Assembly: GCA_963763905.1 (NCBI GenBank)
Contig: CAVXRU010000037.1
Location: forward strand, 9,998 to 73,997
From: an uncultured Acidobacteriaceae bacterium
GTDB lineage: Bacteria; Acidobacteriota; Terriglobia; Terriglobales; Acidobacteriaceae
Reading direction: 5' to 3'
DNA length: 64,000 bases
The translations under genes were made by a program, and so were the position numbers. Shown one piece after another: positions 28,016 through 63,891 of this stretch. The notes beneath the pieces were generated by a model. It saw nothing but the letters and a program-made list of their open reading frames with translations, ran no database searches and had not been told where the DNA came from. Each line of letters starts with the position of its first letter. The stretch's first letter is position 1.

Positions 28016-28487
28016 CCACACCCCCATTGCTACTGCAGGCACCGCCTGTTTTCATCAGAAAGGCTAAGTTTGCAACGCGAGCCAGTCCAGTACGAAGTTC
28101 GACCCAAGAAAAGGAGCCCCGCCAGGGACGAGGATCGGCGACAGCTGGGTTGGCATGAGCTACCTCAATGCATGGGACCTTTCTCCTGGATTGTAATAGA
28201 GCTTGTACGGGACAAGTCATGCCCGAAAGGGGGGACGAAGGCTCGGCGAAACCTTAGGATAGTTGAACGCCTGGCCTGTCGCCTCAGCGATCACGCGCGG
28301 AGTGCGAATGACACCGGTCCCATCGTCGGGCGATGATCGAAACTCGGACCTGAGGCAGGGTTCTGTCTATGCCATATCGGTACACTTCCGTTGTTCTAAT
28401 CCACCTTTGGGTTACAGCGAACGCGAAAATTCTCGTCTAGTCTATCGTTTACGTCTAGTCTATTCTTGATAGATAAGGATTATCCAC

Positions 28488-46072: not shown

Positions 46073-46624
46073 ATGTATCGCGATCCAGGGTCAAACGAGT
46101 CTAACGAATGGTTTGCCTTCCGCGTCCGGCCGAGACACGAGAAGCAGGTTTCGATTGTTTTGCGGGAGAAGGGGTTTGCTGAGTTTTTGCCCCTTTACAA
46201 GTCCAAACGGCAGTGGGCGGATCGAACGAAAGTCGTCGAGATGCCGCTTTTCCCTGGCTACATTTTTTGCTCCACCCGACGATCATCGATCGTGCGTGTT
46301 TTGATGACGAGCGGTGTGATCGACGTGGTTCGGGCGGGCACCAATCCATTGCCCGCAGACAAAGCGGAAATTGAGGCGCTACAGCAGACCATCAGTGTAG
46401 ATGTGCCGCTTGAAGCGTGGCCGTACACCGAGGTCGGCGAAGCGGGTTCTTTTTCCATTCTGCGTGGTCCCTTGGCAGGCTTGACCGGTATTCTGGTCGA
46501 GGTCCGGCGTTCGCAGCGGTTGATTCTATCGGTCAATCTTCTCCGGCGTTCGGTGCTGGTCGAAGTAGATCCAGAATGGGTGACCCCCTATGCTCCGGAG
46601 GCTGTGGAGCGCAAGATGGCGTAG
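46073..46624 (+). CDS. NusG-paralog transcription antiterminator (UpxY/RfaH-like)
   Basis: 183 aa. NGN domain WFAFRVRPRHEKQVSIVLREKGFAEFLPLY...VEMPLFPGYIF. KOW-like ILRGPLAGLTGILVEV. It is the first gene of the polysaccharide operon. RBS GGAGA. Confidence 0.8.
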   Translation: MYRDPGSNESNEWFAFRVRPRHEKQVSIVLREKGFAEFLPLYKSKRQWADRTKVVEMPLFPGYIFCSTRRSSIVRVLMTSGVIDVVRAGTNPLPADKAEIEALQQTISVDVPLEAWPYTEVGEAGSFSILRGPLAGLTGILVEVRRSQRLILSVNLLRRSVLVEVDPEWVTPYAPEAVERKMA

Positions 46625-46857
46625 TTTTAACCTTGCAGCACTTTCATGTTTTCTGTCTATCCCGTGGTTGGTTCTTCCGTGGTAAGGTACGGCCGGTGTT
46701 TTATAGTGCTGGCTTCGTACACCCTCTTGCCGTGCGTTAACGCCTTCCCCCCGAGTTGTTATAGCGATTCGTGTCCCTAAGACGCTCTTTTCAGAGCACG
46801 TCCCCGCCGGAGGCATTTTTCGGCGGAAATCCTAGCCCACAAATGGTGAGTGAATTT

Positions 46858-47898
46858 ATGCATAAGTCTCCAGTCAAAACGATTCTGTTTTCTCTTTGCT
46901 TCCAGGGCTTGATGCTCGTTCCGGCGATAGCCCAGGTAGCAGCTCCAGATGGTCGTGTGGGTACTCCGCTGGCCGGCCCTGTAGTCTCCGCGGCATCCTA
47001 CGTGCCAACTACGCCATCGGCAGAGCCATCCAATTCGACCAGCTACGTACTCGGGCCGGAAGATCAGATCACTGTTCGTGTATTTGCCGCGGACGATATT
47101 CCCGACAAGCCGATACAGATCGACAATGACGGCACGGTTGCACTGCCCATGATCGGGCAGGTCCATGCTGCTGGCTTGACCGTGGAACAGTTCCAGGCCA
47201 ACCTGGTGACCGCCTACAAGAAGTATTTCAAGGATCCGCAAGTCACTGTGCAGGTGAACGATTTCCGCAGCCAACCGGTTTCCGTGGCGGGTAACGTAAA
47301 TACCCCGGGCGTGGTGCAACTGAAGGGAAATCGCAACTTGATGGAAGTGATCGGGCAGGCCGGCGGTTTGCGCGCCGATGCTGGCGATAGCGTGCTGATC
47401 ACCCGCAACCTGAGCGAAGGACCCATCCCGGTGCCCGGTGCGTTCACCGATCCTTCAGGCAAGTTTTCGGTCGCTCACATCGACATACGCGCAGTGATGA
47501 GTGGCAAGGATCCACAGGGCAACATCCTGATCAAGCCGCACGACGTCGTTACCGTGCCCCGGGCGCGCATGATCTACGTGCTGGGCAACGTCGGCAGGCC
47601 GGGCGGTTATGTCCTGACCGATAACGAGACCATGTCGATTACCCAGGCAATTGCCTTGGCCGGGGGATGGGACAAAACCGCAGCCCTTAGCGCGGCAAGA
47701 GTTCTGCGCGCCGATGGCGGCGCCCAGCGGGAACAGATCCCCGCAAATCTGAAAAAGATCATGGAAAACAAATCGCCTGACTTGCAGATGCGCCCCGACG
47801 ACATCCTTTATGTTCCCAACAGTTTGGGGAAACAAGTAAGCGCCCGTGGGCTTGAAGCAGCCATTGGAGTCGGGACTGGCATTCTCATCTGGAAATAG
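46858..47898 (+). CDS. wza: polysaccharide export outer-membrane protein (Wza family)
   Basis: Start at ATG 46858 (signal peptide MHKSPVKTILFSLCFQGLMLVPAIAQ). Poly_export region IDNDGTVALPMIGQVHAAGLTVEQFQANLVTAYKKYFKDPQVTV, followed by SLBB-like repeats. Confidence 0.88.
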   Translation: MHKSPVKTILFSLCFQGLMLVPAIAQVAAPDGRVGTPLAGPVVSAASYVPTTPSAEPSNSTSYVLGPEDQITVRVFAADDIPDKPIQIDNDGTVALPMIGQVHAAGLTVEQFQANLVTAYKKYFKDPQVTVQVNDFRSQPVSVAGNVNTPGVVQLKGNRNLMEVIGQAGGLRADAGDSVLITRNLSEGPIPVPGAFTDPSGKFSVAHIDIRAVMSGKDPQGNILIKPHDVVTVPRARMIYVLGNVGRPGGYVLTDNETMSITQAIALAGGWDKTAALSAARVLRADGGAQREQIPANLKKIMENKSPDLQMRPDDILYVPNSLGKQVSARGLEAAIGVGTGILIWK

Positions 47899-48043: not shown

Positions 48044-50359
48044 ATGACTCCGACCCACCAAATCATTCCTGGACCTCGCTCGCCCGAAGGCCGGAACGCC
48101 GGCCGCGGCACTTCGATAGAACTGTCGCGTCCGATGGGGGTCAATCGGCCCCAACCAGAAGCCTCTGTGAATTACTCAGCGCTACTTCGTCGCCATCGCA
48201 ACGCGATCGCCGTCATCATTGGCGGCACGCTTTTGCTGAGCGTCGCGTATACGTTGGTCGCGCACAAGGTTTATAAGTCGGAAGTGATTCTGGAAGTCAC
48301 CGGGTTCAACGCGGACTTCATGAATTCCAAAGACGTCGATCCAACCTCCAACCAGATCACGGGCGACGAATACATCGAGACCCAAGCTAAGCTCTTGAAG
48401 AGCCCACCGGTGATCCAACGGACCGCGGTAGCTATGGCTCCAAAGGTCCCTGGCGCCATCGCGGCCAAGCAGGGCCTCTTCGGCACCATTCGCGAATGGC
48501 TCGGTGACGTCCATGCAGCCACCCCGGCGGAAGGTGAGGCCGTGGTGTTCAACATGCTGGGGGATGCCAAAGTCAAGGTGGATGGAACTTCGGATCTGAT
48601 CACCGTGACGGTTGTCGGTCCCGAGCCGCAGCTGACCGCGGACACCGCGAATACATTGATTGATCAGTTTATTGAACAAAGTCAGGAGGCCCGCGGCTAC
48701 GCCTCGGGGAACACCAATAAGTTCCTGGCCTCGCAGCTCACCGACGCCCGCAAAAAACTGCAGGATTCTGAAAACGCCCTACAAGAATATGCGCGCCAGA
48801 CCGGTATCGTTATCCCTAGCGACACCCAGGAGAGCGTTGCGGCAGACAAATTGCGGCAGATTCAAACCGATCTGGCCAAGGCCGAAGCAGACGAGGCTGA
48901 TACCAAGGCCCAGGTAGACACTTCGAAAAACTCTCCGGCCGAGTCGATGCCCCAGGTTCTGGACGACCCCACCATGAGGGACAACCGGGCCCGGCTGTCT
49001 GACCTTCGCCGCCAGCTTTCCGATTTGAGCGTCACGCTCACGCCGCAAAACTACAAGATTCAGCAGTTAAACGCCCAGATCGCTGATCTGGAACAACAGA
49101 CTGCGCAACATCGCGCTAACATCATTCGCCGCCTTGGAGTGCAGAACTCTCAAACTGCACGCCGCAAGCAGTTGTTGAGCCAAGCCTATCAGCAACAGTT
49201 AGGCGTGGTCTCCGACCAGTCGGTGAAAGAGGTTCGTTACAACATCCTGAAGAAGGACGTGGATGCCAACCGCGACATTTATCAATCCATGTTGCAACGC
49301 GTGAAGCAGGCGAGCATCGTGGCTGCGTTGAAATCGAGCGATGTCCGCGTGGACAGCCCCGCAACGCCGGGAACATCACCGTACCGGCCGAGCTTGCCTC
49401 TTAACCTGGCATTAGGCCTGCTGCTTGGGATCGTCTTCGCCGGTTGCTACATCCTGCTGCGCGAGCGCAACGATGCCAGCCTGCGGGCGCCTGGTCAGAG
49501 CGTCAAGCACCTCAACGTGCCTGAACTGGCTGTGATTCCTTCCGCGCGCATCGGCAACAGCGAGCGCATCCCGCTCACGCTGCGCAACCTGAATGGGGCC
49601 AACAGCGCCGCACTCGAGTCCAAGAACGGCCCGCTGTCCACCACCTCCGCGGCGGTCGACAAGGAGATGGTGCAGTGGTGTCAGGATGAAACCATGATGG
49701 CGGATGCTTACCGATCCGCAATCACATCTATCCTACTTAGCCGTGTGAACGGAGTCAGTCCCCGGGTGATCCTGGTGACCAGCCCGCGTCCCAAGGCAGG
49801 GAAAACCACCACGGTAGCAAATCTTGGCATCAGCCTGGCGGAAATCGGACGGCGCGTGTTGCTGATCGACGGTGATCTCAGAAGGCCTCGCCTGGGCAAG
49901 CTCTTCGGCTTGCAATTCGCGACCGGCTTGAGCGATGCGCTGCTCGACGAAGGCCGTGGAGCCACCACGCTTGACTCTGTCATTCGCCCTAGCACTGTCC
50001 CGGGACTGTACGTGTTGCCCGGTGGCTCGGAGCCGGCGAATATCTCCAGGCTGCTCCATTCCACGCATCTGGATAGCCTGATCGAGATGGCGAGAGCGGA
50101 GTATGACTTCGTACTCATCGACTCTCCGCCGATGATGGGTATGGCCGATGCGCGGCTTCTGAGCCGCAACGCCGATGGTGTCATTCTGATCAGTCGCGCC
50201 GGAGAGACCAGCCCGGAGCAATTGAGCGAAGCCAGAGAGCGGCTGGACGATGATGGCACTCCGGTCATTGGCACCATCCTGAATGGCTGCGATCTTCGTA
50301 TCGAAGATCCATCATACGTTAGCCACTACAACAGCTACGCCGGCGTGTCACGCGGCTAG
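48044..50359 (+). CDS. wzc: polysaccharide co-polymerase / tyrosine autokinase (Wzc/GumC-EpsG type)
   Basis: 771 aa. Wzz-like N-terminal TM plus a long coiled coil. Walker A SPRPKAGKTTTVANLG, A-prime LLIDGDLRRP, Walker B VLIDSPPM. Tyr-containing tail SYVSHYNSYAG. Confidence 0.88.
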   Translation: MTPTHQIIPGPRSPEGRNAGRGTSIELSRPMGVNRPQPEASVNYSALLRRHRNAIAVIIGGTLLLSVAYTLVAHKVYKSEVILEVTGFNADFMNSKDVDPTSNQITGDEYIETQAKLLKSPPVIQRTAVAMAPKVPGAIAAKQGLFGTIREWLGDVHAATPAEGEAVVFNMLGDAKVKVDGTSDLITVTVVGPEPQLTADTANTLIDQFIEQSQEARGYASGNTNKFLASQLTDARKKLQDSENALQEYARQTGIVIPSDTQESVAADKLRQIQTDLAKAEADEADTKAQVDTSKNSPAESMPQVLDDPTMRDNRARLSDLRRQLSDLSVTLTPQNYKIQQLNAQIADLEQQTAQHRANIIRRLGVQNSQTARRKQLLSQAYQQQLGVVSDQSVKEVRYNILKKDVDANRDIYQSMLQRVKQASIVAALKSSDVRVDSPATPGTSPYRPSLPLNLALGLLLGIVFAGCYILLRERNDASLRAPGQSVKHLNVPELAVIPSARIGNSERIPLTLRNLNGANSAALESKNGPLSTTSAAVDKEMVQWCQDETMMADAYRSAITSILLSRVNGVSPRVILVTSPRPKAGKTTTVANLGISLAEIGRRVLLIDGDLRRPRLGKLFGLQFATGLSDALLDEGRGATTLDSVIRPSTVPGLYVLPGGSEPANISRLLHSTHLDSLIEMARAEYDFVLIDSPPMMGMADARLLSRNADGVILISRAGETSPEQLSEARERLDDDGTPVIGTILNGCDLRIEDPSYVSHYNSYAGVSRG

Positions 50360-50746: not shown

Positions 50747-52201
50747 ATGGGGAGAATCGCTGTCATGCATGTCCGTAATCTGCGCTTTTATCAGACTATG
50801 CAATTCGTACTGGATCTACTCGCGGTGACAGTTGCCTGGAGCTGCACCATCCAGATGCGAGTGCTACTGAATCCCTTGGCTACGCAACGAGTCAGCTGGA
50901 CCTATGCTTCGATCTGGGCGCCCTCCTTGATGATGGTCCTGGTGTTGTGGATCGTCATCGCGTGGCGGCTCGGGTTCTATCGCGTTGAAGGCCGTATCCG
51001 TCTGTGGAACAGCATCATTAATGCGGCCGAAGGCGCGCTGATAGCCAGCTGCATCATCGTCATCGTCACTTTCTTTTCCCGCGAACTTGGCACTGACGTT
51101 TCGCGCGCATTCTTCATCATCTTCGCGCCTCTCAGCTTTTTTAGCTTGGGCGTGGCGAGGTGCGTCAGCGTGGTCGCAGCTATGGTGGCCGAACGGCATT
51201 GGCCGTCGCCGATCCGGGCGGCGCTCCTGGGAGACGGTCCTCACGCGGGGCGCCTGGTCGCGCTCATGAACACAGCCAATGTGGCCAACGTAATCAAGGG
51301 CGTAATTCTCCCCGAAGGCCACACTGCGGAGGGCTTGTCACTGCCGATGCCGATTCTGGGATCGACTGGACAGCTGGCCGAAGTCATCAATCGCGAACAC
51401 CTCAATCGCATCATTCTTCTCAATGGCTCGATCTCACGGGACGAACTGGACGAATGCAATAAGGTGTTCAAGCGAATGGGTGTCATCGTCAATTGCACGG
51501 TTGACTTTGCCCCGGAACCAGGCCGAATCAATGTGGTGAACCAATACGGTTTGCCGCTGGTCGAGCTGCGGCCCTTGGCGTTTACCAAAGGTCAGGAGTT
51601 TGTCAAGCGGGCCTTTGACATCGTAGCCTCAGCGCTTGCGCTCATCTTTCTCGGCCCCACCTTCTTGGTGATAGCGATGTTGGTGAAGTTCACGTCAGAG
51701 GGACCCATTCTTTATAAGGCGCCGCGGGTGGGTAGAGGTGGCCGTCACTTCATGTTCCTCAAGTTTCGCTCCATGTATACCAACATGGATCGCACGCATG
51801 TGGCACACGCCAATGAAAAGCAGGGTCATATTTTCAAGATGAAACAGGATCCTCGCGTCACCCCGATTGGGCGTTTCATTCGGCGCTATAGCCTGGATGA
51901 ATTGCCACAGCTGATCAATGTGCTGCGCGGAGAGATGAGCCTGGTAGGTCCGAGGCCATTGCCTGCGGGTGACATGGGGCCGGATGGGATGAGCCGCGAA
52001 TTCGCCGATTGGTCCGAGGGACGGGCTGCCGTGTATCCCGGCATTACCGGCCTGTGGCAGGTGAACGGCCGCAGCGAACTCCCGTTTGAAGAGATGGTGC
52101 GGCTCGACCTGCAATACATTCGTGAATGGTCGCTGCTACTGGATATCAAAATCATTCTGGCGACGCCCGGCCTGGTCGTGAAGGGTGTAGGAGCCTACTG
52201 A
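50747..52201 (+). CDS. polyprenyl-phosphate sugar-1-phosphate transferase (WbaP/EpsB-type priming enzyme)
   Basis: 484 aa. Four N-terminal TM helices, then the Bac_transf domain KRAFDIVASALALIFLGPTFLVIAMLVKFTSEGPILYKAPRVG...DELPQLINVLRGEMSLVGPRP. Confidence 0.88.
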   Translation: MGRIAVMHVRNLRFYQTMQFVLDLLAVTVAWSCTIQMRVLLNPLATQRVSWTYASIWAPSLMMVLVLWIVIAWRLGFYRVEGRIRLWNSIINAAEGALIASCIIVIVTFFSRELGTDVSRAFFIIFAPLSFFSLGVARCVSVVAAMVAERHWPSPIRAALLGDGPHAGRLVALMNTANVANVIKGVILPEGHTAEGLSLPMPILGSTGQLAEVINREHLNRIILLNGSISRDELDECNKVFKRMGVIVNCTVDFAPEPGRINVVNQYGLPLVELRPLAFTKGQEFVKRAFDIVASALALIFLGPTFLVIAMLVKFTSEGPILYKAPRVGRGGRHFMFLKFRSMYTNMDRTHVAHANEKQGHIFKMKQDPRVTPIGRFIRRYSLDELPQLINVLRGEMSLVGPRPLPAGDMGPDGMSREFADWSEGRAAVYPGITGLWQVNGRSELPFEEMVRLDLQYIREWSLLLDIKIILATPGLVVKGVGAY

Positions 52202-53442: not shown

Positions 53443-53532
53443 GTTAGATCGCGTGACAACTTGTTACATTTGCATTTCTTCCTTTCCTCGGCAGCTCCGC
53501 TGCCAAAGAATTCCAGATTGGAGCAATCACGA

Positions 53533-54627
53533 ATGAGTACTAAGCCTCTCGTCAGTATCGGACTCTTTCTCTATAACGGAGAGCGATTCCTCGAAGCCGC
53601 TATCGAATCCATACTCAATCAAACCTTTAGGGATTTCGAACTCATCATTTCTGATAACTGCTCCACCGATAGCAGTGATGAGATTTGCCGGCGCTATGCA
53701 GCTCAGGATCCCCGCATTCGCTATTACCGCAACCAGCGCAATATGGGCGCGGGTTGGAACCTCAGACGGGTCTACGAACTGGCCACCGGGAAATACTTCA
53801 AGCAGGCCGCACACGACGACATGATTCAGCCGGACTACCTTCGCCAGTGCGTGGACGCATTGGAGGCCGATGAGTCGCTCGTTCTTGCCCATAGCCTGAC
53901 CCGGGTGGTCGACGAGAACGGCCAGGTCATCGAGAACTACGATGACGGAAGGTTCGAGGACGGGAAAAGAGATGTCGAAGCACGCTCCCGTGTCGGTCAC
54001 CGGTTAACGAGCATGCGCACCAGTTCGCTCGACCCGGTCGTACGCGCACGAGACCTTCTTCTCATAGGCCACAGATGCTATTCCATCTTTGGCCTCATTC
54101 GCCTCGACGCCCTGCACAAGCTACCGCCCCAAGGCTGCTATGCACACAGTGACCGTGTGCTTCTGTTGCAACTTGGCTTGCTCGGACGGTACTACGAGGT
54201 CCCGGAGTATTTGTTTATCAGCACCCGGCATTCGGGTCAGTCGGTCAGGACCTCCCCAGAAAGAACCAAGGCCAAGGGATTTCGCCTGACTCGGCGCGTT
54301 GGTACGTTGCCGGCGATGGAGTGGTGGGATCCCACCAAGGCCCGCAAGATCCTGTTCCCAGAGTGGAAAGCGGCTAAGGAGTTTTTCCTCTCCGTTGTTC
54401 ATGCGCCACTGACGCCGTGGCAAAAGATGAGATGCTACGGCCTGGTTGGACGGTGGCTGTTGAAATATCACCGCCGCATGGCTAAGGATGTTCTGCTAGC
54501 CGCCGATCAAGTGCTGTTCAATTTCCAAAACAGGGATGCTATGGCAGCCAAGCCCCCCCAAACTGCCGATGCATCCTCCAAAATAGTCTCCCTCGATCCA
54601 AATACCAGTGGAGGTGAATCTTTATGA
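53533..54627 (+). CDS. family-2 glycosyltransferase
   Basis: Start at ATG 53533, after GGAG. VSIGLFLYNGERFLEAAIESILNQTFRDFELIISDNCSTDSS. The stop overlaps the next start (ATGA at 54624-54627). Confidence 0.85.
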   Translation: MSTKPLVSIGLFLYNGERFLEAAIESILNQTFRDFELIISDNCSTDSSDEICRRYAAQDPRIRYYRNQRNMGAGWNLRRVYELATGKYFKQAAHDDMIQPDYLRQCVDALEADESLVLAHSLTRVVDENGQVIENYDDGRFEDGKRDVEARSRVGHRLTSMRTSSLDPVVRARDLLLIGHRCYSIFGLIRLDALHKLPPQGCYAHSDRVLLLQLGLLGRYYEVPEYLFISTRHSGQSVRTSPERTKAKGFRLTRRVGTLPAMEWWDPTKARKILFPEWKAAKEFFLSVVHAPLTPWQKMRCYGLVGRWLLKYHRRMAKDVLLAADQVLFNFQNRDAMAAKPPQTADASSKIVSLDPNTSGGESL

Positions 54628-55475
54628 AGGTTGCAATTCTTGCAGGGGGGTTGGGCTCGCGGCTAGCCGAAGAAACTGAAGTCAAGCCGAAGCCCATGGT
54701 CGAGATTGGCGGTAAGCCAATTCTCTGGCACATCATGATGCACTATGCGCACTATGGCTTCAGTGAATTCGCGATCGCCCTGGGCTATAAGGGTGAAGTG
54801 ATCAAGAAGTACATGCTTGACTATTGCTCGCTGAATCGCGATTTGAGTGTCTCGCTTAAAACCGGCAAAGTCAAAATGAATGGCGGAATCGTGCCCGACT
54901 GGACCGTAGACCTGGTCGATACCGGTATGAAGACGCAGACCGGCGGCCGCATCAAGCGGTTGGCTCCGTATATGGGTAACGAGACATTCATGCTCACCTG
55001 GGGCGACGGCGTCTCCGACATCAACCTGCACGATCTGCTCGCGTTCCATCGCTCGCATGGAAAGCTGGCCACGCTCACTGCTGTCAGACCGACGGCGCGC
55101 TTTGGCCACCTCGAGATGGATGGCAATCTGGTCACCGAGTTTTCTGAGAAGCCACAAACGAAGGAAGGCTGGATCAACGGTGCGTTCTTTGTCCTGGAAC
55201 CCGAGATCTTTGACTTCATCGACGGCGATGACACCCACTTCGAGAAGGAGCCGCTCGAGCGGCTGGCCAGCGAAGGACAACTGACGGCGTATCGGCACAC
55301 CGCCTTCTGGCAGTGTATGGATACCATCCGCGAGAAAAAGATCCTGGAGACGTACTGGGAAAGCGGCAACGCACCATGGAAAACTTGGGAGGAATCGAAT
55401 GCGAGTATTAATAACGGGCCACGCGGGGTACATCGGAACGGTTTTGGTACCAATGTTGTTGCAGGCCGGGCATGA
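54624..55475 (+). CDS. rfbF: glucose-1-phosphate cytidylyltransferase
   Basis: [57 protein letters not shown]...[11 protein letters not shown] is near-canonical RfbF. The 3-prime end overlaps the next gene by 77 nt. Confidence 0.92.
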
Positions 55476-56466
55476 AGTAGTTGGGCTCGATACCGATCTT
55501 TTCGAGCGCAGCACCTTCAGCGACGGGATCGCAGAGATCCCCGAGATCCGCAAGGACGTTCGCGATGTAACCCTGTCTGATGTCGAGGGCTTCGAGGCCA
55601 TTCTGCATCTCGCCGGGCTTTCGAACGATCCCTTGGGCGACCTGAATCCAGGTCTGACCTTTGAGATCAACCACCAGGCATCCGTCAAGCTGGCCAAGTT
55701 GGCCAAGCAGGCCGGGGTGGAGAGATTTATCTTCTCTTCTTCCTGCAGCAACTACGGCGCCGGTGGCGACGATCTGCTGGATGAGCATTCGGCCTTTAAC
55801 CCCGTTACCCCGTATGGCACCTCCAAAGTCATGGTGGAGCGGGACGTGGCCAAGCTGGCCGACCATCGCTTCAGCCCCACTTTCCTGCGCAATGCTACCG
55901 CCTTCGGTGTTTCACCCCGGTTGCGGTTTGACCTGGTACTGAACAACCTGGTGGCCTGGGCTTATGCCACCGGCCGGGTCTACATCAAGAGCGATGGAAC
56001 TCCGTGGAGACCCATCGTGCACATCGCCGACATCTCGCGTGCCTTCATTGCTGCGATGCACGCACCGATTGACCTGGTGCACAACGAAGCATTCAACGTT
56101 GGCCGCAACGAGGACAACTACCGGATTTACGAGCTGGCCGACATCGTTAAGGAGACGGTGCCCAACACGGTGATCGAGTATGCAGCCGATGCCGGCCCCG
56201 ACAAGCGCTGCTACCGCGTGGATTGCAGCAAAATTCGCAAGGTTCTGCCCGAGTTTCAGCCCGTCTGGGACGCCCGCAAGGGTGCGGTCGAACTGCACGA
56301 AACCTACAAGAAGATCGGCCTGGTTCTCGAAGACTTCGAGGGGCCGCGCTTTAAGCGGATCGCACATATTCGGAAGTTGATCGAGGATGGTCTTCTCGAC
56401 TCCTCTCTCCGTTGGACCAACCAGGAAGCGCCGGCTGCCGTTGCCGCGGGGGCTGCGAAGGCATGA
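55399..56466 (+). CDS. NAD-dependent nucleotide-sugar epimerase/dehydratase (extended SDR)
   Basis: 355 aa. Rossmann [14 protein letters not shown]; catalytic SSSCSNYG...YGTSK. It is not obviously the canonical CDP-glucose 4,6-dehydratase RfbG. Confidence 0.85.
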
Positions 56467-57692
56467 CCAATTCAACCTTTCACTGCCGCGCATGCAATTC
56501 TGCGCAGTGCGTTCCGATCCTTTCTTTCGGAACCACTCCGCTTGCCGATGCACTGCTCTCAGCCGACCAGCTTGGATCGCCGGAAGTCACGGCGCCCCTC
56601 GACCTGGTCTTCTGCCCCGAGTGCTCGCTGGTGCAGATCACCGAAACGGTTCCGCCGGAAATTCTCTTTTGCCGGAACTATCCTTACTTTTCTTCCGTGT
56701 CGAAGAGCCTGCTGGAGCATTTCGCGAAAAGTGCTGAAGCCATCGTTCATTCGCGCGGTCTCAATGCCGGCAGCCTGGTCATCGAAGCAGCGTCCAACGA
56801 CGGTTACATGTTGCGCAACTTCGTAAAGCACGGCATACCGGTCCTCGGTATCGATCCTGCCGAAGAGCAGGTACGCACTGCCAACGAGCGCGGCGTGACC
56901 AGTATCAACACCTTTTTCACAAAGGATCTGGCTGAAAAGCTGGCCTCCGAGGGCAAGAAGGCCGACGTCTTCCTGGCCAACAATGTGCTTGCTCATGTGG
57001 CAGACCTCAACGGCTTCGTCGACGGCATCGCCGCCTTATTGAAGCCCACCGGCGTCGCAGTGATCGAGGCGCCTTACATTGTCGACCTGATCCAGAAGTG
57101 CGAGTTCGACACCATTTACCACCAGCATCTCTGCTATTTCTCGGTGACAGCGCTATCCAGGCTGTTCCGTGATCATGGCCTTCACCTGAACGACGTGGAG
57201 CGCACGAGGATCCATGGCGGATCCCTCCGGCTGTTCGTCGAGCCGGTGGAAACTCCCACCGCACGCCTGAGAGCGATCCTCGCGGACGAAAAAAACGCAG
57301 GTGTCTCAACCATCGAGTACTACAAGGGCTTTGCTGATCGCGTGCATGCCGTGCGCGACCAGCTCACCACCCTGTTGAAGGATTTGAAGGGCAAAGGCAA
57401 GTCGATTGCCGGCTATGCAGCAGCGGCCAAGGCCACCACTCTGCTCGCCTTCTGCAATATCGATAAGAAACTGCTCGATTACGTAGTCGACCTGAATGAG
57501 TTCAAGCAGGGCCGGTTCATGCCCGGTAATCACCTGCCGATTCTTTCCCCGCAGAAACTGCTGGATACAAAGCCCGATTATGTTCTCGTGCTGGCGTGGA
57601 ATTTTGCCGGCGAAATTATGGAACAACAACATGCCTATAAGGCGCGTGGCGGAAAATTCATTATTCCGATTCCGACGCCTGCAGTTGTCTAA
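56463..57692 (+). CDS. NDP-hexose C-methyltransferase-family enzyme (TylC3/EryBIII-like architecture)
   Basis: ATGA overlap with the SDR stop. N-terminal Zn-ribbon CRACNS...CPECSLVQ; SAM domain [13 protein letters not shown]; C-terminal C-methyltransferase-type domain [14 protein letters not shown]...YVLVLAWNF. Confidence 0.8.
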
Positions 57693-57706
57693 AGGAGATT
57701 TGCTTC

Positions 57707-58636
57707 ATGAATAGCATCTACGTAGATTCCAGGTTTAACGACGAGAAGCGCCGTCAGCTCTTGTATGAGGGGCAGCTTTTTGTTTACTCGCCCCGGCCCA
57801 CGGCTCTGGCCTTCACCGATTTCGCTGCGGAAATGATCAAGGATGCTTTCGGCAAAGACGACCCGACCACAGCCCAGTACGACATGCCGGTAGAAGAGTT
57901 TGTTCGTATCTTCGCTCCTCTCAAGCCCGCTTTTATTCATCACCCGGAGACCAAGCGGCTGATCCAGGCCATGCTCAAGGACTTCGGTTGCGACATGGAG
58001 ACGACTTACCTCGATGTGCCGCGCCTGCGCGCCGTCACCTCCGATGCTTATCTGACTTCGGGTGTGGGATACGCACACCATCTCCACCGCGATACCTGGT
58101 ACTCGGCTCCGATGTGCCAGCTCAACTGGTGGCTGCCCATCTTCGAGATGTCTTCGGAGAGCTCGATGGCTTTTCATCCGCGGTATTGGAGTGAGGCGGT
58201 CAAGAACGGGTCCAGCAAGTTCAACTACTACGCCTGGAACAGCACCGGCCGGGCAGACGCGGCCAAGCACATCAAGTCCGACACCCGCGAGCAGCCAAAG
58301 CCCGAGCAGCCCATGGAGTTGGACCCACAGGTGCGGGTCATCTCTGAGCCCGGTGGAGCGCTGGTCTTTTCCGCCGCCAACATGCACTCAACCGTGCCCA
58401 ACACCTCCGGCAAGACCCGCTTCAGCATCGACTTCCGCACCGTCAGCCTGATCGATGTGAAGGCGAAGAATGGAGCGCCCAATCTCGATTCACACCCGAT
58501 TGGAACCTCCCTGCGTGACTTCATGAAGGGATCCGATCTGAGCCCCATGCCGGAAGAAATCGCGGCTGCGTATGACAGCCCTGAAGCAGCCGACGGAGTT
58601 AAAGTATTCCGCCCGGAAGTGGTAGGAGCCCGCTAG
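57707..58636 (+). CDS. cupin-fold non-haem Fe(II)/2-oxoglutarate oxygenase-like protein, family not recognised
   Basis: 309 aa. RBS AAGGAG. Putative facial triad HRD in GYAHHLHRDTWY plus distal H in AANMHSTVPN. Putative 2OG-binding Arg in KTRFSIDFR. Confidence 0.55.
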   Translation: MNSIYVDSRFNDEKRRQLLYEGQLFVYSPRPTALAFTDFAAEMIKDAFGKDDPTTAQYDMPVEEFVRIFAPLKPAFIHHPETKRLIQAMLKDFGCDMETTYLDVPRLRAVTSDAYLTSGVGYAHHLHRDTWYSAPMCQLNWWLPIFEMSSESSMAFHPRYWSEAVKNGSSKFNYYAWNSTGRADAAKHIKSDTREQPKPEQPMELDPQVRVISEPGGALVFSAANMHSTVPNTSGKTRFSIDFRTVSLIDVKAKNGAPNLDSHPIGTSLRDFMKGSDLSPMPEEIAAAYDSPEAADGVKVFRPEVVGAR

Positions 58637-58647
58637 CTATAGGACAT

Positions 58648-58697
58648 GAGTGGGTGGCCCAGGTCTCGCTTTTAAGGCCTGGGTTTTCCCCGAAGGA
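58648..58697. repeat. REP-like element (copy 1)
   Basis: GAGTGGGTGGCCCAGGTCTCGCTTTTAAGGCCTGGGTTTTCCCCGAAGGA, about 85 percent identical by eye to 61420-61470. The related palindrome CACCCACCCACTC-TGT-GAGTGGGGTGGC lies at 58833-58860. Confidence 0.6.
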
Positions 58698-58899
58698 ACT
58701 TTGCCGGAGAAACCGCGCAGTCTCGATGGGCCCGGGCAAGGATTGATCGCGATGAGCCGTAGAGCTCAAGCGAAATGTTTAGACAATTTCTGCCGCTATC
58801 TGAGCTTCGTCGATACCCTCGACCATTCCTTGCACCCACCCACTCTGTGAGTGGGGTGGCAGGAATCTGCCGTCATCATACTTTTACGGGGATCAAGAA

Positions 58900-60084
58900 A
58901 TGCCTGAGATTAAAACCTGCCCAAACTGTTTGAAGGGCGACATGAGTGTCTTCTACCAGGTTCCACGGGTGCCGGTGCACAGCGTGCTGCTGATGCCCAC
59001 GCGCGAAGTTGCCGTGAACTTTCCCAAAGGCGATATTGCGCTGGGTCATTGCTCCCACTGCGGATTTATCGCCAACACTGTCTTCGATCCAACCGTCCAC
59101 AACTACTCTGCGCAGTACGAGGAGACGCAGGGCTTTTCCGGGACCTTCCAGGCCTTCCATCGCCGCCTGGCTGCCGAAATGATCGAAAAATACGACCTGC
59201 ACAACAAGAAGATGATCGAGATTGGCTGTGGTAAGGGCGAGTTTCTCTCGCTGTTATGCGAGATGGGCAACAACAGTGGCGTGGGTTTCGATCCTGCATT
59301 TGTCAGCGAACGGAACCCTTGTGCTGGAGACGCCAAAGTTGAATTCGTGGCTGACTTCTACGGCGAAAAATATGCCCACGTGCAAGGCGATTTCGTGTGC
59401 TGCAAAATGACGCTGGAACACATACCCGATACGGCAAACTTCGTGAAGACCGTGCGCCGCTCCGTGGGGGATCGCTACGACACCGTGATCTTCTTCCAGG
59501 TGCCCGATATGACCCGCGTGCTGCGCGATCTGGCCTTCTGGGATATTTACTACGAGCATTGTTCCTATTTCAGCGCAGAATCGCTCTCTCTGTTATTTCG
59601 TGAGTCGGGATTTGACGTGCTCGATGTCTGGACCGACTACGACGACCAATATCTGATGATCACGGCGAAGCCCTCGCGCACCACCGCATCTCTGGTTGAG
59701 AAACCCGATCCGGCTCAGCTGAACAAAGATATTCAGTTCTTTACCGAACACCAGGCGGCAAGAATGGCTTCGTGGAGGAACAAGCTCGAGGAAACACGGA
59801 ACAGCGGTAAAAAGGCCGTGGTGTGGGGTTCCGGATCAAAGGGCGTTGCCTTCCTCACGGCGCTCAACATGCATACACCCGATTGCGAAATCGAATACGT
59901 GGTCGACATCAATCCCTTCCGCGAAGGCAAATACATGGCCGGCACCGGGCAGGAGATTGTCTCGCCGGCCTTTCTCAAGCGGTACAAACCAGACCTGGCC
60001 ATTGCCATGAACCCCATCTACCAACCAGAGATCAAGGCGGATCTCGAGAAAATGGGCCTGTCTACTGAGGTTGTCTCCGTTTGA
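58900..60084 (+). CDS. second C-methyltransferase-family enzyme (Zn-ribbon, class I SAM and C-terminal domains)
   Basis: 394 aa. CPNCLKG...CSHCGFI; MIEIGCGKGEFL; C-terminal AVVWGSGSKGVAFL...PDLAIAMNP. It has the same three-domain layout as 56463-57692 but is clearly divergent. Confidence 0.78.
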   Translation: MPEIKTCPNCLKGDMSVFYQVPRVPVHSVLLMPTREVAVNFPKGDIALGHCSHCGFIANTVFDPTVHNYSAQYEETQGFSGTFQAFHRRLAAEMIEKYDLHNKKMIEIGCGKGEFLSLLCEMGNNSGVGFDPAFVSERNPCAGDAKVEFVADFYGEKYAHVQGDFVCCKMTLEHIPDTANFVKTVRRSVGDRYDTVIFFQVPDMTRVLRDLAFWDIYYEHCSYFSAESLSLLFRESGFDVLDVWTDYDDQYLMITAKPSRTTASLVEKPDPAQLNKDIQFFTEHQAARMASWRNKLEETRNSGKKAVVWGSGSKGVAFLTALNMHTPDCEIEYVVDINPFREGKYMAGTGQEIVSPAFLKRYKPDLAIAMNPIYQPEIKADLEKMGLSTEVVSV

Positions 60085-60132
60085 TTCCAAATCCAGCCCT
60101 GCTCACGTGCAGAGGCTTCTAAAAGGCAATCT

Positions 60133-61347
60133 ATGTATGATTTCGCAATAATTGGTGGAGGGATTGTTGGACTGGCGACCGGGGCTGCTCTCGGCCGCCG
60201 TTATCCCTTTGCGCGAATTCTTTTGGTGGAAAAGGAAGTAGGCTTTGCCCAGCATCAGACTGGCCGCAACAGCGGCGTCATTCATTCCGGTATCTACTAC
60301 AAGCCAGGCAGTCTAAAAGCAGAACTGGCCCAGGCAGGGAACCAGTCCCTGCGGGCTTTTTGTTACGAATACGGTGTCCCTTTCGATATTTGCGGCAAGC
60401 TGATTGTCGCGACCAAAACGGAAGAACTCCCGCAACTGGAAAGTATCTACGAACGCTCTTTACAGAACGGCGTGCCGGCCATGCGGCTTCGCCCGGAAGA
60501 AGCACAAGAAGTGGAACCGCACGTTTCCTGTGTCGCTGCCATTCGCGTGCCCACCACCGGCATCGTCGATTATCGCCAGGTATGTCATGCACTGGTGCAT
60601 GAAATCCAGCAGCAGGGCGGAGAGCTCAAGGTGGGCACAGAGGTCCTCCATGTCGTGCCTACCCCGCTCGGTCATTTGCTGGAAACATCCTGGGGCTCGC
60701 TCGAAACTCGCTTCCTGATTAACTGCGCTGGCTTGCAGAGCGATCGTGTGGCCAAACTGGGCGGTATGGAACCAAAAGCCATGATCGTGCCTTTCCGTGG
60801 AGAATACTTTGAGTTAAGGCCTGAGCGGCGCCACCTGGTGCGTCATCTCATCTACCCTGTTCCCAACCCGGCCTTTCCTTTCCTCGGAGTGCACTTCACC
60901 CGCATGATGGATGGAAGCATCCACGCCGGCCCCAACGCTGTTCTGAGCATGAAACGCGAAGGCTACAACAAAACAGACTTTAGCTGGCGTGACCTTTCTG
61001 AAGTTTTGCTCTACCCTGGTTTCTGGAAGCTTTCTTCCAAGTATTTTCGCGAAGGCGCCCAGGAGATGTACCGTTCCCTAAGCAAAGCCGCCTTTACCAA
61101 GAGCCTGCAGCGCCTGGTGCCCGAGGTACAAGCAGACGATCTGATTCCCAGCAAGAGCGGCGTGCGCGCCCAGGCGCTTCTGCGCGATGGAAGCATGGTC
61201 GACGACTTCCTCATGCTGGAAGGCAAGAACTCGCTTCATGTCTGCAACGCTCCGTCGCCGGCAGCCACTGCCTCGCTCGAGATAGCCAAAAGGATCGTCA
61301 GCAAGGTGCCTCGTCCCGGTCGCCTCTCCCTGGTCAAAATGGCGTAA
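60133..61347 (+). CDS. lhgO: L-2-hydroxyglutarate oxidase-type FAD-dependent oxidoreductase
   Basis: 404 aa. DFAIIGGGIVGLATG; HQTGRNSGVIHSGIYYKPGSLKA; the length and C-terminal NAPSPAATASL are typical of LhgO/YgaF. Confidence 0.8.
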   Translation: MYDFAIIGGGIVGLATGAALGRRYPFARILLVEKEVGFAQHQTGRNSGVIHSGIYYKPGSLKAELAQAGNQSLRAFCYEYGVPFDICGKLIVATKTEELPQLESIYERSLQNGVPAMRLRPEEAQEVEPHVSCVAAIRVPTTGIVDYRQVCHALVHEIQQQGGELKVGTEVLHVVPTPLGHLLETSWGSLETRFLINCAGLQSDRVAKLGGMEPKAMIVPFRGEYFELRPERRHLVRHLIYPVPNPAFPFLGVHFTRMMDGSIHAGPNAVLSMKREGYNKTDFSWRDLSEVLLYPGFWKLSSKYFREGAQEMYRSLSKAAFTKSLQRLVPEVQADDLIPSKSGVRAQALLRDGSMVDDFLMLEGKNSLHVCNAPSPAATASLEIAKRIVSKVPRPGRLSLVKMA

Positions 61348-61610: not shown

Positions 61611-62756
61611 TTGCGCATCGTCATCTTTGACTACAAAATCTCCCGCAACAACCCCATTGGAAGCTGTCACCTGGCGATGTTGCGCGCGCTGGCTGCGGAG
61701 CACGAGTTTACCGTTTTCGCCGTTGAGTTCGACAATCCGAGTCCGGAGAAGATCCGGTTTATCCGCGTACCGTCTCCTACGCGCCCCCTGGCCCTGCTCT
61801 TCGTCGTCTACCATTTCATGGCCCCCCTCTGTTATTGGCTTTACCGGCTACGCGGTGGACCAAAACCGGATCTTGTTCAGGCTTTGGAGAGCAATCTCGC
61901 CTTCGGCGATCTCCTGTACTCCCACTTTTGCCATGGCATGTACCTCAAGCATCACTGGAGCAAATCCGGCGCCAAAGGCCTGCGCGGGTGGTTTCGCTGG
62001 CTCGATCATCAACTGCACGCCTGGATGGAACGCTTTACCTATCCCCGCGCCAAACAGGTCGTGGTGCCGTCCCGAGGCTTGGCCAGGGAGCTTAGAGAGG
62101 AATTCCCGTACATCGAAAACAAGCTTACGGTTGTGCCGAATCCCATCAGCCTTGATCGCTTGCAAATGCCGGCTGATTTCGATCGCCAGGCATTTCGTCA
62201 CAGCCTGGGTATCGATGACCAGGACCTGGTCTGTCTCTTTGTGGCGTTGGGACAATTCGAGCGCAAAGGCTTACCCCTGCTCATGCAGGCCTTGGGAACC
62301 CCAGGCCTGGAGCGCTTCAAGCTCATCGTCGTGGGTGGTGAATCCGATCTGATCGCGCGCTTCGGCGCGAACTATCAGCTCGGGGATCGGGTCAAATTTG
62401 TCGGTATGCAGTCTGATGTCCGCCCGTACCTCTGGAGCTCGGACGTCTTCGTCTTTCCATCGCTGTACGAGACTTTTTCTTTAGTTACTTACGAAGCCGC
62501 GGCCTCCGGTCTTCCCGTCGTGGTCTCCCACCTGTATGGAGTGGAAGACTTGCTGGTAGACGGAGAGAACGGCTTCCTGATTGAAACCAGCGTCGCCGGC
62601 GTCAGGACGGGCCTGGGGCGCATTCTCAGCCTCGGCCCGGACGAACGCCATGCCATGGGTCAACGGGCCCGGCTGGCGGCCTCTGCCTGCTCTGAGGAAC
62701 ATTTCGTCGACGCCTGGCGTGCCTTTTATCTTGGTTTGTCATCTCAGAGTAATTGA
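61611..62756 (+). CDS. family-4 glycosyltransferase
   Basis: TTG start. 381 aa. EX7E region PSLYETFSLVTYEAAASGLPVVVS. The N-terminal third is duplicated as a relic at 43179-43546. Confidence 0.85.
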   Translation: MRIVIFDYKISRNNPIGSCHLAMLRALAAEHEFTVFAVEFDNPSPEKIRFIRVPSPTRPLALLFVVYHFMAPLCYWLYRLRGGPKPDLVQALESNLAFGDLLYSHFCHGMYLKHHWSKSGAKGLRGWFRWLDHQLHAWMERFTYPRAKQVVVPSRGLARELREEFPYIENKLTVVPNPISLDRLQMPADFDRQAFRHSLGIDDQDLVCLFVALGQFERKGLPLLMQALGTPGLERFKLIVVGGESDLIARFGANYQLGDRVKFVGMQSDVRPYLWSSDVFVFPSLYETFSLVTYEAAASGLPVVVSHLYGVEDLLVDGENGFLIETSVAGVRTGLGRILSLGPDERHAMGQRARLAASACSEEHFVDAWRAFYLGLSSQSN

Positions 62757-62808: not shown

Positions 62809-63891
62809 ATGAGAGTTGAATCGGCAACGAGCAAGTTCACTCCCATCGCATTGAAGAGTCTTGCGCCCAGGCCCACCGTTTCCGTACTCATCACCTGCTT
62901 CAACTATGGAGCCTACGTTGGCCAGGCGATCGACAGTGCGCTTGAGCAAACCTACGCGCCAACAGAAATCATCGTCAGCGACGATGCCTCCCAGGACAAC
63001 TCCTGCGAGGTAGTCGAATCCTATGTCACCCGGAACCCCGGCATTCGCCTGCTGCGTAATCCTCATGGAGGCATGGCGGCCAACCTCAATTCCGCCTATC
63101 GCAACTGTTCTGGAGAAGTAATCTGCCTGCTCGATGCGGATGATGCCTTCCTGCCGGGAAAAATCGAGGCGGTGGTGAATGCTTTTCTTGCCCATCCGCG
63201 GGCAGGCTCTGCGATCCATCGGGCCAGCTTGGTCGACTATCAGAAGCGGGCGCATGGTGTCTATCCTTCGTTGAGCGCCCTCCCCTCGGGGGACTGTGCG
63301 CAGATTACCTATAACAATTCCGGAATATTGATGGGCCTACCCCCCACCACCAACCTTTCGCTTCGCCGCGAAGTCGCTGACCGCATCTTCCCCATACCCG
63401 TGGAATACACCGGTTACGCAGAGCAGATCATTCACGGCCTGGCGCCGCTGATGACCGAACTCTGTGCCGTCGACGCGCCGCTTGCGATCTGGCGATTGCA
63501 CAACTCAAACGACCAGAACTCAACCCTTATCACGACGCGTCGCATGGAACGGGAGCTCAAGATCATGGACTCGCTGTGGCTGGAACAGAAACACTACCTC
63601 GAAGGCGTCGATGTGGCCCTCGCCCTGTCCTTTCCCCCGGTCGATCGCAATCCGCTTTATCTCAAGATGAACTACATACGGCATCGACTGAACAATGATC
63701 CAGCGATCCGTCAGGCATACAATGATCTTTGCCGTTACGGCCTGAGGGCGAATTCGAAGATGGATCGGTTCTGGCGATACTCCAATCGTCTTCCCCGTCC
63801 GCTCTTTAAGCGAGCAGTTGATCTGCTTCTGACCCAGAGTGTATGGAGACAGATGGTCACCCGCGCTATCCGCGCCAAGCACTCCGTTTGA
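62809..63891 (+). CDS. family-2 glycosyltransferase
   Basis: 360 aa. VSVLITCFNYGAYVGQAIDSALEQTYAPTEIIVSDDASQDNS; LDADD. Confidence 0.88.
   Translation: MRVESATSKFTPIALKSLAPRPTVSVLITCFNYGAYVGQAIDSALEQTYAPTEIIVSDDASQDNSCEVVESYVTRNPGIRLLRNPHGGMAANLNSAYRNCSGEVICLLDADDAFLPGKIEAVVNAFLAHPRAGSAIHRASLVDYQKRAHGVYPSLSALPSGDCAQITYNNSGILMGLPPTTNLSLRREVADRIFPIPVEYTGYAEQIIHGLAPLMTELCAVDAPLAIWRLHNSNDQNSTLITTRRMERELKIMDSLWLEQKHYLEGVDVALALSFPPVDRNPLYLKMNYIRHRLNNDPAIRQAYNDLCRYGLRANSKMDRFWRYSNRLPRPLFKRAVDLLLTQSVWRQMVTRAIRAKHSV

Follow-up and report, generated by a model that had tools for sequence, protein, structure and literature searches.

The system described here is a six-gene block (54624-61347, + strand) in a 64-kb stretch of a contig from an uncultured Acidobacteriaceae bacterium (CAVXRU010000037.1); the whole stretch is called the window below. 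The genes encode, in order, the glucose-1-phosphate cytidylyltransferase RfbF, an extended short-chain dehydrogenase/reductase (SDR), a first methyltransferase (MT1), a 309-amino acid (aa) putative dioxygenase, a second methyltransferase (MT2) and LhgO, an L-2-hydroxyglutarate dehydrogenase (L2HGDH). The reading that we favour, holding it with evenly divided confidence, is that the cassette would convert cytidine diphosphate (CDP)-glucose into a C-methyl-branched hexose that keeps its 6-OH, using a hydride shuttle between 2-oxoglutarate and L-2-hydroxyglutarate. A first-pass annotation of this DNA had suggested a CDP-activated, C-methyl-branched hexose made without RfbG, E1 or E3, and our comparisons support this as a reading.

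In a scan that took one genome per species, close relatives of the SDR turned up in at least 595 genomes, and the best 80 loci were examined; these are the closest relatives of the query and not a random sample. The tblastn identity thresholds used to assign neighbouring genes were 60% (RfbF), 50% (MT1 and the oxygenase), 45% (LhgO), 38% (MT2) and, for the upstream glycosyltransferase of family 2 (GT2), 30%. RfbF was found beside the SDR in 78 loci, MT1 in 75, MT2 in 59 (with two copies in some), the upstream GT2 in 37, LhgO in 26 and the oxygenase in 15. The order and strand of RfbF, SDR and MT1 are the same in about 75 of the 80 loci, which span at least eight phyla (Acidobacteriota, Cyanobacteriota, Bacteroidota, Ignavibacteriota, Verrucomicrobiota, Chloroflexota, Planctomycetota and Thermodesulfobacteriota) plus a Schekmanbacteria genome. 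What had been taken as one cassette of six genes is instead a core of RfbF, SDR and MT1, to which an MT2-LhgO module and an oxygenase module are optionally added. Nor is such a pathway rare or mainly enterobacterial, as had been supposed; the SDR occurs in many phyla, and on rhizobial and roseobacter plasmids.

The SDR and its relationship to Cj1427

The SDR scores 140 bits against Pfam Epimerase, and no curated equivalog in NCBIfam was matched. Its closest solved relative is Cj1427 of Campylobacter jejuni (6vo6/6vo8; E 1.5e-33, 119 bits, 35% identity), which lies 43 bits above the next match in the PDB, MoeE5 at 76 bits. When the AlphaFold model of the SDR (mean predicted confidence, pLDDT, of 68) was used in a Foldseek search, six chains of 6vo6/6vo8 took ranks 1-6. 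The NAD-binding motif G7-x-x-G10-x-x-G13 (GHAGYIG) and residues S115, Y139 and K143 are invariant, and the protein is 67-80% identical across phyla. In 4,6-dehydratases the catalytic Ser or Thr is followed directly by an Asp-Glu pair. The S115-C116-S117 sequence of the SDR aligns with T-N-S in Cj1427, and neither protein has the Asp-Glu pair at this point.

Cj1427 oxidizes C4 of guanosine diphosphate (GDP)-heptose with a tightly held cofactor, the NADH being re-oxidized by 2-oxoglutarate to give L-2-hydroxyglutarate in a ping-pong mechanism (PMC10680097). L-2-hydroxyglutarate is the predicted substrate of LhgO, and this is what links the SDR and LhgO in the scheme. Cj1427 also offers a precedent for the expectation, expressed in the first-pass annotation, that the SDR must supply the keto group by some other way than dehydration, since its NADH is discharged onto 2-oxoglutarate. 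The neighbour of the SDR is rfbF in nearly all of the loci and heptose genes are not present, so we propose that the SDR would work like Cj1427 while not being its orthologue in substrate. Because the core of three genes has no other redox enzyme and MT1 requires a keto sugar, the product of the SDR would be CDP-4-keto-glucose.

RfbF and the lack of a dehydratase

RfbF aligns with the full length of TIGR02623 (model positions 1-255 of 255, residues 1-255) at 357.6 bits, against a cut-off of 300.25. This match above the curated cut-off bears out its earlier assignment as the maker of CDP-glucose. Beyond the family model the protein has a 28-aa C-terminal tail, which runs 77 nucleotides (nt) into the SDR gene (55399-55475) in a different frame. 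Alignments in roughly half of the related loci extend over the tail too; the likely cause is a high conservation at the DNA level of the SDR N-terminus.

No second SDR of the PF01370 type, and hence no RfbG, was found in the 64-kb window at E<=1e-5. The only SDR reaches 27.9 bits on the dehydratase model TIGR02622, for which the cut-off is 278, and the earlier statement that no canonical RfbG or E1/E3 genes were recognized holds. Across the 80 neighbourhoods there is no recurrent family of second SDRs, reductases or dehydratases.

The two methyltransferases

TcaB9- and MtmC-type enzymes require a 4-keto group beside the carbon that is methylated, and in TcaB9 catalytic roles are played by the residues of a Tyr...His...Tyr-x-Glu-His pattern. 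MT1 scores above cut-off for each of the three domains of this family, namely Methyltransf_13 (the Zn ribbon, 71 bits), Methyltransf_23 (the S-adenosylmethionine (SAM) domain, 65.5 bits) and Methyltransf_14 (197.7 bits). It matches MtmC (4rv9; E 1.1e-90), KijD1 (2e-79) and TcaB9 (~1e-77) over its full length, and all its solved relatives with E <= 1e-70 are sugar 3-C-methyltransferases. All 70 orthologues examined keep Y73/Y75, H178, Y219 and H222, and in 68 of them Q221 stands where the pattern has Glu. By this homology MT1 is most likely a C-methyltransferase of nucleoside diphosphate (NDP)-4-keto-hexoses, with C3 as the site of methylation.

MT2 is more divergent. It scores 78 bits on Methyltransf_23 and 43 bits on Methyltransf_14, and Methyltransf_13 was not called by Pfam. 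Residues 4-378 align with MtmC (E 3.5e-18, 69 bits), and the four cysteines C7, C10, C51 and C54 align with the MtmC ribbon. These cysteines, together with Y73, an EIGC(G/S)KG motif, H174, E219 and H220, are kept in 64-66 of 66 orthologues. MT2 would be a putative catalyst of a second methylation. The proposal of two enzymes of the C-methyltransferase family is supported, in that both keep the Zn ribbon and the catalytic Tyr, His and Tyr-x-(E/Q)-His positions of the TcaB9/MtmC type.

An unlikely alternative is that the SDR is a mere epimerase or 4-ketoreductase and that the methyltransferases act on oxygen atoms or on other substrates, so that the product would be an O-methylated or epimerized CDP-hexose. 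This would sit well with the 4-epimerases that are the next structural relatives of the SDR, with the replacement by Gln of a conserved Glu in MT1, and with the distance of MT2 from characterized C-methyltransferases, to which it is related at only 69 bits. Yet the nearest solved relatives of MT1 are without exception sugar 3-C-methyltransferases, and the catalytic His and Tyr are invariant in the MT1 and MT2 families. The fusion of SDR and MT1 described below points to the hand-over of a reactive intermediate, and the linkage to an L2HGDH would be left unexplained.

Fusion of SDR and MT1, and relatives on plasmids

A single uninterrupted open reading frame (ORF) of 780 aa encodes both the SDR and MT1 on plasmids of Leisingera aquaemixtae and L. 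caerulea, and is followed by two MT2-like genes. The linker of about 30 aa differs in sequence between the two species while the frame is kept. Fusions among the six families were found only on these Leisingera plasmids, and none in the 80 genome loci. The fusion argues that the SDR and MT1 act in sequence. We note that in the gene table of L. caerulea the coding sequence covers the methyltransferase part only.

The pSymB megaplasmid of Sinorhizobium meliloti 1021 (NC_003078.1, ~692.7-702.4 kb) carries an SDR that is 62% identical and an MT1 that is 55% identical, in the same order. Two MT2-like genes and a GT2 orthologue lie beside this core, and LhgO and the oxygenase were not found within 9 kb. 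The rfbF gene appears as two tblastn segments in different frames, an apparent frameshift. From gene order only, the record being unannotated, we infer that the 62%-identical gene is SMb21417. If so, its label of 'ddhB 4,6-dehydratase' is probably wrong, because the gene would belong to the Cj1427-like family. In Anabaena PCC 7120 the annotation of alr2825-alr2829 in the heterocyst envelope polysaccharide (HEP) island (a cytidylyltransferase, a hypothetical protein, an epimerase/dehydratase and two unknowns) is compatible with the cassette, which these genes may represent; the Nostocales locus examined (L080) is not the HEP island.

LhgO is an L2HGDH by its conserved ligand-binding residues

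LhgO scores 582 bits against the equivalog NF008726 (cut-off 299) and aligns over its full length with Drosophila L2HGDH (8w75; E 9e-96). In the Drosophila enzyme 2-oxoglutarate is bound by S88, H92, Y289, L299, H302 and R393 (PMC10726252). The corresponding residues of LhgO are S47, H51, Y241, L251, H254 and R345, and these are invariant in all 25 of 25 cassette-linked copies. Between them the six residues contact the C1 carboxyl, the C2 oxo and the C5 carboxyl groups of 2-oxoglutarate. Judged by its sequence, LhgO is a true L2HGDH orthologue.

This is at odds with the earlier view of LhgO as a flavoenzyme that tailors the sugar, given a full-length L2HGDH orthologue in which every 2-oxoglutarate-binding residue is conserved. 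That it is a tailoring oxidase whose direct substrate is the sugar or a hydroxy-acid substituent, as that view implied, would agree with its position inside a sugar cassette, 48 nt after MT2, but is hard to reconcile with the score on an L-2-hydroxyglutarate oxidase equivalog, the close match to the Drosophila enzyme and the invariant binding site; we consider it quite improbable. A role for LhgO as the maker of the 4-keto sugar was rejected, the RfbF-SDR-MT1 core being present without LhgO in 54 of the 80 loci and the L-2-hydroxyglutarate site being intact.

LhgO is found in 8 of the 12 acidobacterial loci, in 17 of the 42 cyanobacterial loci (from many families) and in one planctomycete. In most of the 26 loci it is the next gene after MT2, in all of them the two are within ~3 kb of each other, and LhgO stays by MT2 even where MT2 is 8 kb from the SDR. 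LhgO never occurs without MT2 (26 of 26; hypergeometric P = 5e-5, uncorrected for phylogeny). The oxygenase is lacking in 16 of the 26 LhgO loci, and five oxygenase loci have no LhgO.

The csiD and lhgO genes of E. coli lie next to each other, which raises the alternative of a CsiD-LhgO-type pair, in which the oxygenase would convert glutarate to L-2-hydroxyglutarate for LhgO. The presence of an oxygenase and LhgO in one cassette would suit such a pair, but the two genes often occur apart, as the counts above indicate, and in Pfam the 309-aa protein has no match to the CsiD family. Pairing with a CsiD-like oxygenase was rejected on the co-occurrence and on this lack of a match. LhgO might otherwise be a housekeeping repair gene that is here by chance. 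LhgO was counted within 7 kb of the SDR in 26 of the 80 loci, from three phyla, whereas by our estimate chance would place a single-copy gene in a given 20-kb stretch of a ~5-Mb genome in ~0.4% of cases, and to find LhgO just 3′ of MT2 in Acidobacteriota, in many cyanobacterial families and in a planctomycete is far from chance. Taken together, we allow these two explanations very little probability.

The 16 loci that have LhgO and no oxygenase leave the SDR as the only dehydrogenase source of L-2-hydroxyglutarate. LhgO is a true L2HGDH by sequence and in those loci the SDR is the sole candidate producer, and on these grounds LhgO would recycle the L-2-hydroxyglutarate that the SDR makes.

A proposed pathway

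In the pathway that we favour RfbF, on the strength of its TIGR02623 match, would make CDP-D-glucose. The SDR, acting as Cj1427 does, would oxidize C4 with tightly bound NAD+ and release CDP-4-keto-glucose with no 4,6-dehydration, and the bound NADH would be discharged onto 2-oxoglutarate to give L-2-hydroxyglutarate. MT1 would then exploit the 4-keto group for enolization at C3 and transfer a methyl group from SAM, as the homology with MtmC, KijD1 and TcaB9 and the fusion with the SDR suggest. Where MT2 is present it may add a second methyl group, and C5 suggests itself as the site, being the other alpha-carbon. In the Acidobacteriota and a few other lineages the Fe(II)/2-oxoglutarate dioxygenase may hydroxylate or epimerize an intermediate. 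LhgO would return L-2-hydroxyglutarate to 2-oxoglutarate and pass the electrons to quinone or O2, which would draw the unfavourable oxidation of C4 forward and avert a build-up of L-2-hydroxyglutarate. MtmC has ketoreductase activity as well as its methyltransferase activity. A dedicated 4-ketoreductase is not conserved, and C4 would therefore be reduced at the end by the NADH form of the SDR or by a methyltransferase acting as MtmC does. The co-conserved GT2 would place the finished sugar into the exopolysaccharide.

The strongest rival dispenses with a net oxidant. In such a redox-neutral loop the SDR would oxidize C4, MT1 would methylate, and the SDR would return the hydride to the methylated 4-keto sugar; LhgO would do no more than clear L-2-hydroxyglutarate arising from the off-cycle rescue of NADH-loaded enzyme or from an MT2 product that cannot be re-reduced. 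This is consistent with the want of a conserved separate ketoreductase in the 80 loci, with the 54 loci in which the core stands without LhgO, and with the restriction of LhgO to loci that have MT2. It demands, however, that the keto sugar leave and rebind an enzyme whose cofactor is tightly held, for which the family offers no known precedent, and it leaves unaccounted for the retention of a dedicated L2HGDH in three phyla if L-2-hydroxyglutarate were only a minor by-product. We accord the loop a real though distinctly minor probability, well behind the shuttle.

Several observations weigh against the shuttle itself. The identity between the SDR and Cj1427 is only 35%, in the fold search Cj1427 is only modestly ahead of 4-epimerases and the model used was mediocre (pLDDT 68), and the defining trait of Cj1427, bound NADH that is re-oxidized by 2-oxoglutarate, is not readable from sequence, the linkage to an L2HGDH gene being the one indirect indication of it here. 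MT1 has Q221 (in 68 of 70 orthologues) where MtmC, KijD1 and TcaB9 have Glu. LhgO is tied most tightly to MT2 and not to the SDR, and the loci without it include all those of the Bacteroidota, Chloroflexota and Ignavibacteriota, from which it follows that the core pathway works without a cassette-encoded copy. The co-occurrence counts are uncorrected for shared ancestry, and in the 80 neighbourhoods a reductase for the last step was not identified. One reading of the association of LhgO with MT2 is that the MT2 product may no longer take the hydride back, in which case 2-oxoglutarate would become a stoichiometric sink.

More generally, we suggest a widespread module in which C4 of CDP-glucose is oxidized with 2-oxoglutarate as sink and in which, in aerobic lineages, an operon-encoded L2HGDH passes the electrons to the respiratory chain. 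Its dehydratase-free products would be mono- or di-C-methyl hexoses with an intact 6-OH, with hydroxylated forms in the Acidobacteriota. Our confidence in this broader proposal falls somewhat short of even.

The 309-aa putative dioxygenase

H127-x-D129, H227 and R238 of the 309-aa protein are invariant in 23 homologues, and correspond to the HxD...H facial triad and to an Arg for the C5 carboxylate of 2-oxoglutarate. Its profile scores lie below cut-off (2OG-FeII_Oxy_5, 20.5 vs 27; PhyH, 18.2 vs 22; TIGR04324, 24 vs 150). Sequence searching of the PDB gave one weak match, to CytC3 (E 0.038), and a profile search gave nothing meaningful; the protein is therefore placed by fold comparison only. 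A Foldseek search with its AlphaFold 2 model (pLDDT 73.5; like that of the SDR, of moderate quality) returned 270 PDB matches at E<=1e-3, with template modelling (TM) scores of only 0.35-0.45. The 50 matches listed are all Fe/2-oxoglutarate enzymes, for example SptF, PtlH, FtmOx1, EvdO1 and SnoN, of which EvdO1 and SnoN modify sugars. The invariant triad and the fold matches agree with the earlier description of a cupin-like, oxygenase-like protein with an HxD...H pattern.

The gene is a lineage-restricted insert between MT1 and MT2. In another Acidobacteriaceae locus (L005, 12309-13238) the oxygenase is 64% identical to the window copy, and the neighbouring cassette genes are 92-95% identical. 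This suggests that the oxygenase there may have been replaced by a divergent allele.

The locus and its setting

All six ORFs exist on the + strand as first reported (Table 1), and the family assignments of all six proteins are upheld by profile searches in Pfam and NCBIfam and by PDB and fold matches. The tight packing that had been described applies to the first four genes, and not beyond, where gaps of 263 nt before MT2 and 48 nt before LhgO are found; a further 263 nt follow LhgO. The 77-nt overlap of rfbF and the SDR gene, the ATGA overlap of the SDR and MT1 genes and the 14-nt gap between MT1 and the oxygenase were confirmed, as was an ATGA overlap at 54624-54627, where the stop codon of the upstream GT2 gene overlaps the start of rfbF. 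The ATG of MT1 at 56463 is overlapped by the stop codon of the SDR gene, and an upstream TTG at 56412 is also open. The length of the gap before MT2 differs among close relatives. A sequence scan of the gaps before MT2, before LhgO and after LhgO revealed no convincing consensus terminator or promoter.

Table 1. Positions of the cassette genes, of the surrounding polysaccharide genes and of plasmid-borne relatives. Positions refer to the window unless a plasmid is named.
Feature	Position	Strand	Basis or remark
NusG-like protein (operon head)	46073-46624	+	Pfam NusG
Wza-type exporter (operon head)	46771-47898	+	Pfam Poly_export/SLBB
Wzc-type tyrosine kinase (operon head)	48044-50359	+	Pfam Wzz/GNVR/AAA_31
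Priming transferase (operon head)	50747-52201	+	Pfam Bac_transf
GT2 glycosyltransferase	53461-54627	+	Pfam Glycos_transf_2, 89.7 bits; candidate transferase for the CDP-sugar
rfbF, glucose-1-phosphate cytidylyltransferase	54624-55475	+	TIGR02623 equivalog
Extended SDR, proposed CDP-glucose C4-dehydrogenase	55399-56466	+	Cj1427-like by sequence and fold
MT1, predicted SAM-dependent NDP-4-keto-hexose C-methyltransferase	56463-57692	+	Pfam; homology with MtmC/KijD1/TcaB9
Putative Fe(II)/2-oxoglutarate dioxygenase, PhyH-like fold	57707-58636	+	Facial triad and fold match
Intergenic gap, oxygenase/MT2	58637-58899		263 nt; no ORF start possible before 58900
MT2, divergent paralogue of the three-domain C-methyltransferase family	58900-60084	+	Pfam; MtmC alignment
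L-2-hydroxyglutarate dehydrogenase/oxidase (LhgO/L2HGDH)	60133-61347	+	NF008726 equivalog
GT4 glycosyltransferase	61611-62756	+	Pfam Glycos_transf_1, Glyco_transf_4; kept downstream in acidobacterial loci
GT2 glycosyltransferase, downstream	62809-63891	+	Pfam Glycos_transf_2, 106.7 bits
SDR-MT1 fusion, L. aquaemixtae	plasmid NZ_CP081054.1, L083 9001-11343		
SDR-MT1 fusion, L. caerulea	plasmid NZ_CP081076.1, L084 6001-8343		
S. meliloti pSymB cassette	L082 8227-12541 and 15691-17973		

The flanking of the block by GT2 and family 4 (GT4) glycosyltransferase genes was confirmed in Pfam. An orthologue of the upstream GT2 (30-84% identity) is found in 37 of the related loci, mostly directly 5′ of rfbF. 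Upstream on the same strand are genes for a NusG-like protein, Wza, Wzc, a priming transferase of the Bac_transf family and two GT2 enzymes. The genes for Wza, Wzc and the priming transferase identify the setting as a polysaccharide operon, of the Wzx/Wzy type. The NusG paralogue lies directly 5′ of the Wza-type exporter and is probably an operon-specific antiterminator, as in long polysaccharide operons.

Elsewhere in the polysaccharide region of the window there are transposase remnants (DDE_3, IS66) at 30126-31025 and 37643-38197. A near-identical strain (ENA ERZ25039470, contig_13468; L001 3551-4090) has a DDE_3 transposase between the priming transferase and the GT2 genes, and the GT2 and rfbF gene calls of that contig are shortened. 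A lone RmlC-type dTDP-4-dehydrorhamnose 3,5-epimerase (231 bits) is encoded at 27395-28042 on the - strand, and rmlA, rmlB and rmlD are all missing from the window. Cupin epimerases of this type use 4-keto NDP-sugars, and the window copy could in principle take the CDP-4-keto intermediate; its gene is 27 kb from the cassette and on the opposite strand. At 28488-30002 (+) one ORF of 504 aa joins a GT2 domain to a methyltransferase domain of class I (Methyltransf_23/MetW), and may be a glycosyltransferase that also methylates its own product.

Among the related loci, a protein of ~520 aa that has a VanZ domain at its N-terminus and also a LamG/concanavalin-like domain is encoded next to the cassette in 12, mostly cyanobacterial (L011-L014, L021, L025, L034, L037, L045, L060, L061 and L071), and a pair of genes for a GT4 enzyme and a PIG-L deacetylase recurs in nine.

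Novelty and significance

All six proteins come from known families, and nothing in the cassette is categorically new. A literature search found no description of the cassette, nor a route matching this combination, in agreement with the remark in the first-pass annotation that it could not be mapped to a described pathway. Two features appear to be undescribed. One is the combination of CDP-glucose, dehydratase-free oxidation at C4 and one to three methyltransferases of the TylC3 family; the other is an operon-encoded L2HGDH that completes a 2-oxoglutarate shuttle.

Non-deoxy 3-C-methyl hexoses have been described as rare, the sole natural case cited being 3-C-methyl-D-mannose in an atypical Helicobacter pylori O-antigen. 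If the pathway is correct, it would be a second route to a 4-keto NDP-hexose, one that avoids 6-deoxygenation, opening C-methyl branching on ordinary hexoses, and the first shuttle of the Cj1427 type between 2-oxoglutarate and L-2-hydroxyglutarate to be closed by its own recycling enzyme. L2HGDH would gain a biosynthetic role in bacteria beyond metabolite repair. Since at least 595 species-level genomes have the core, which also lies on rhizobial megaplasmids, an unrecognized sugar may be common in the exopolysaccharides of soil, peat and cyanobacterial mats. Hundreds of species encode the putative module, many cyanobacteria and S. meliloti among them, although non-deoxy C-methyl hexoses are almost unreported in polysaccharides.

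Comparison with known systems

A close parallel to the proposed pathway is the Cj1427/Cj1430/Cj1428 system for GDP-heptose in the C. jejuni capsule, which shares the oxidation of C4 without dehydration to feed later enzymes (PMC10680097). The two differ in substrate, GDP-manno-heptose there and, from the adjacency of rfbF, probably CDP-glucose here, and in the downstream enzymes, which are cupin epimerases and an NADPH reductase in C. jejuni and C-methyltransferases in the cassette. The SDR of the window also has a conserved C-terminal extension of ~45 aa that is not in Cj1427, and no cluster-encoded L2HGDH partner of Cj1427 is mentioned in PMC10680097.

The CDP-3,6-dideoxyhexose pathway of Salmonella and Yersinia O-antigens likewise starts from CDP-glucose made by an RfbF orthologue. 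The cassette differs in having no RfbG, E1 or E3, and in a sole SDR that lacks the Asp-Glu pair of the dehydratases.

MT1 and MT2 share with TylC3, EryBIII, TcaB9, KijD1 and MtmC of antibiotic deoxysugar pathways the Zn ribbon, the SAM domain, Methyltransf_14 and the same catalytic Tyr and His. The substrates of those enzymes are deoxythymidine diphosphate (dTDP)-linked 2,6-dideoxy or 3-amino-4-keto sugars that derive from a 4,6-dehydratase. Here, by contrast, the carrier would be CDP, there is no dehydratase and the 6-OH is expected to be kept; MT1 has Gln for the conserved Glu, and MT2 is a deep-branching paralogue.

The use of 2-oxoglutarate as a hydride sink for an unfavourable alcohol oxidation would be shared with SerA and WbpB. 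SerA is coupled with D-2-hydroxyglutarate dehydrogenase, and WbpB/WlbA recycle their NAD+ with 2-oxoglutarate. Finally, the cassette would resemble CsiD-LhgO of E. coli in that a 2-hydroxyglutarate dehydrogenase is paired with a producer of 2-hydroxyglutarate. The cassette differs in its proposed producer, an SDR with a CDP-sugar as its substrate, in the L configuration of the 2-hydroxyglutarate and in the linkage of the two genes within a polysaccharide operon.

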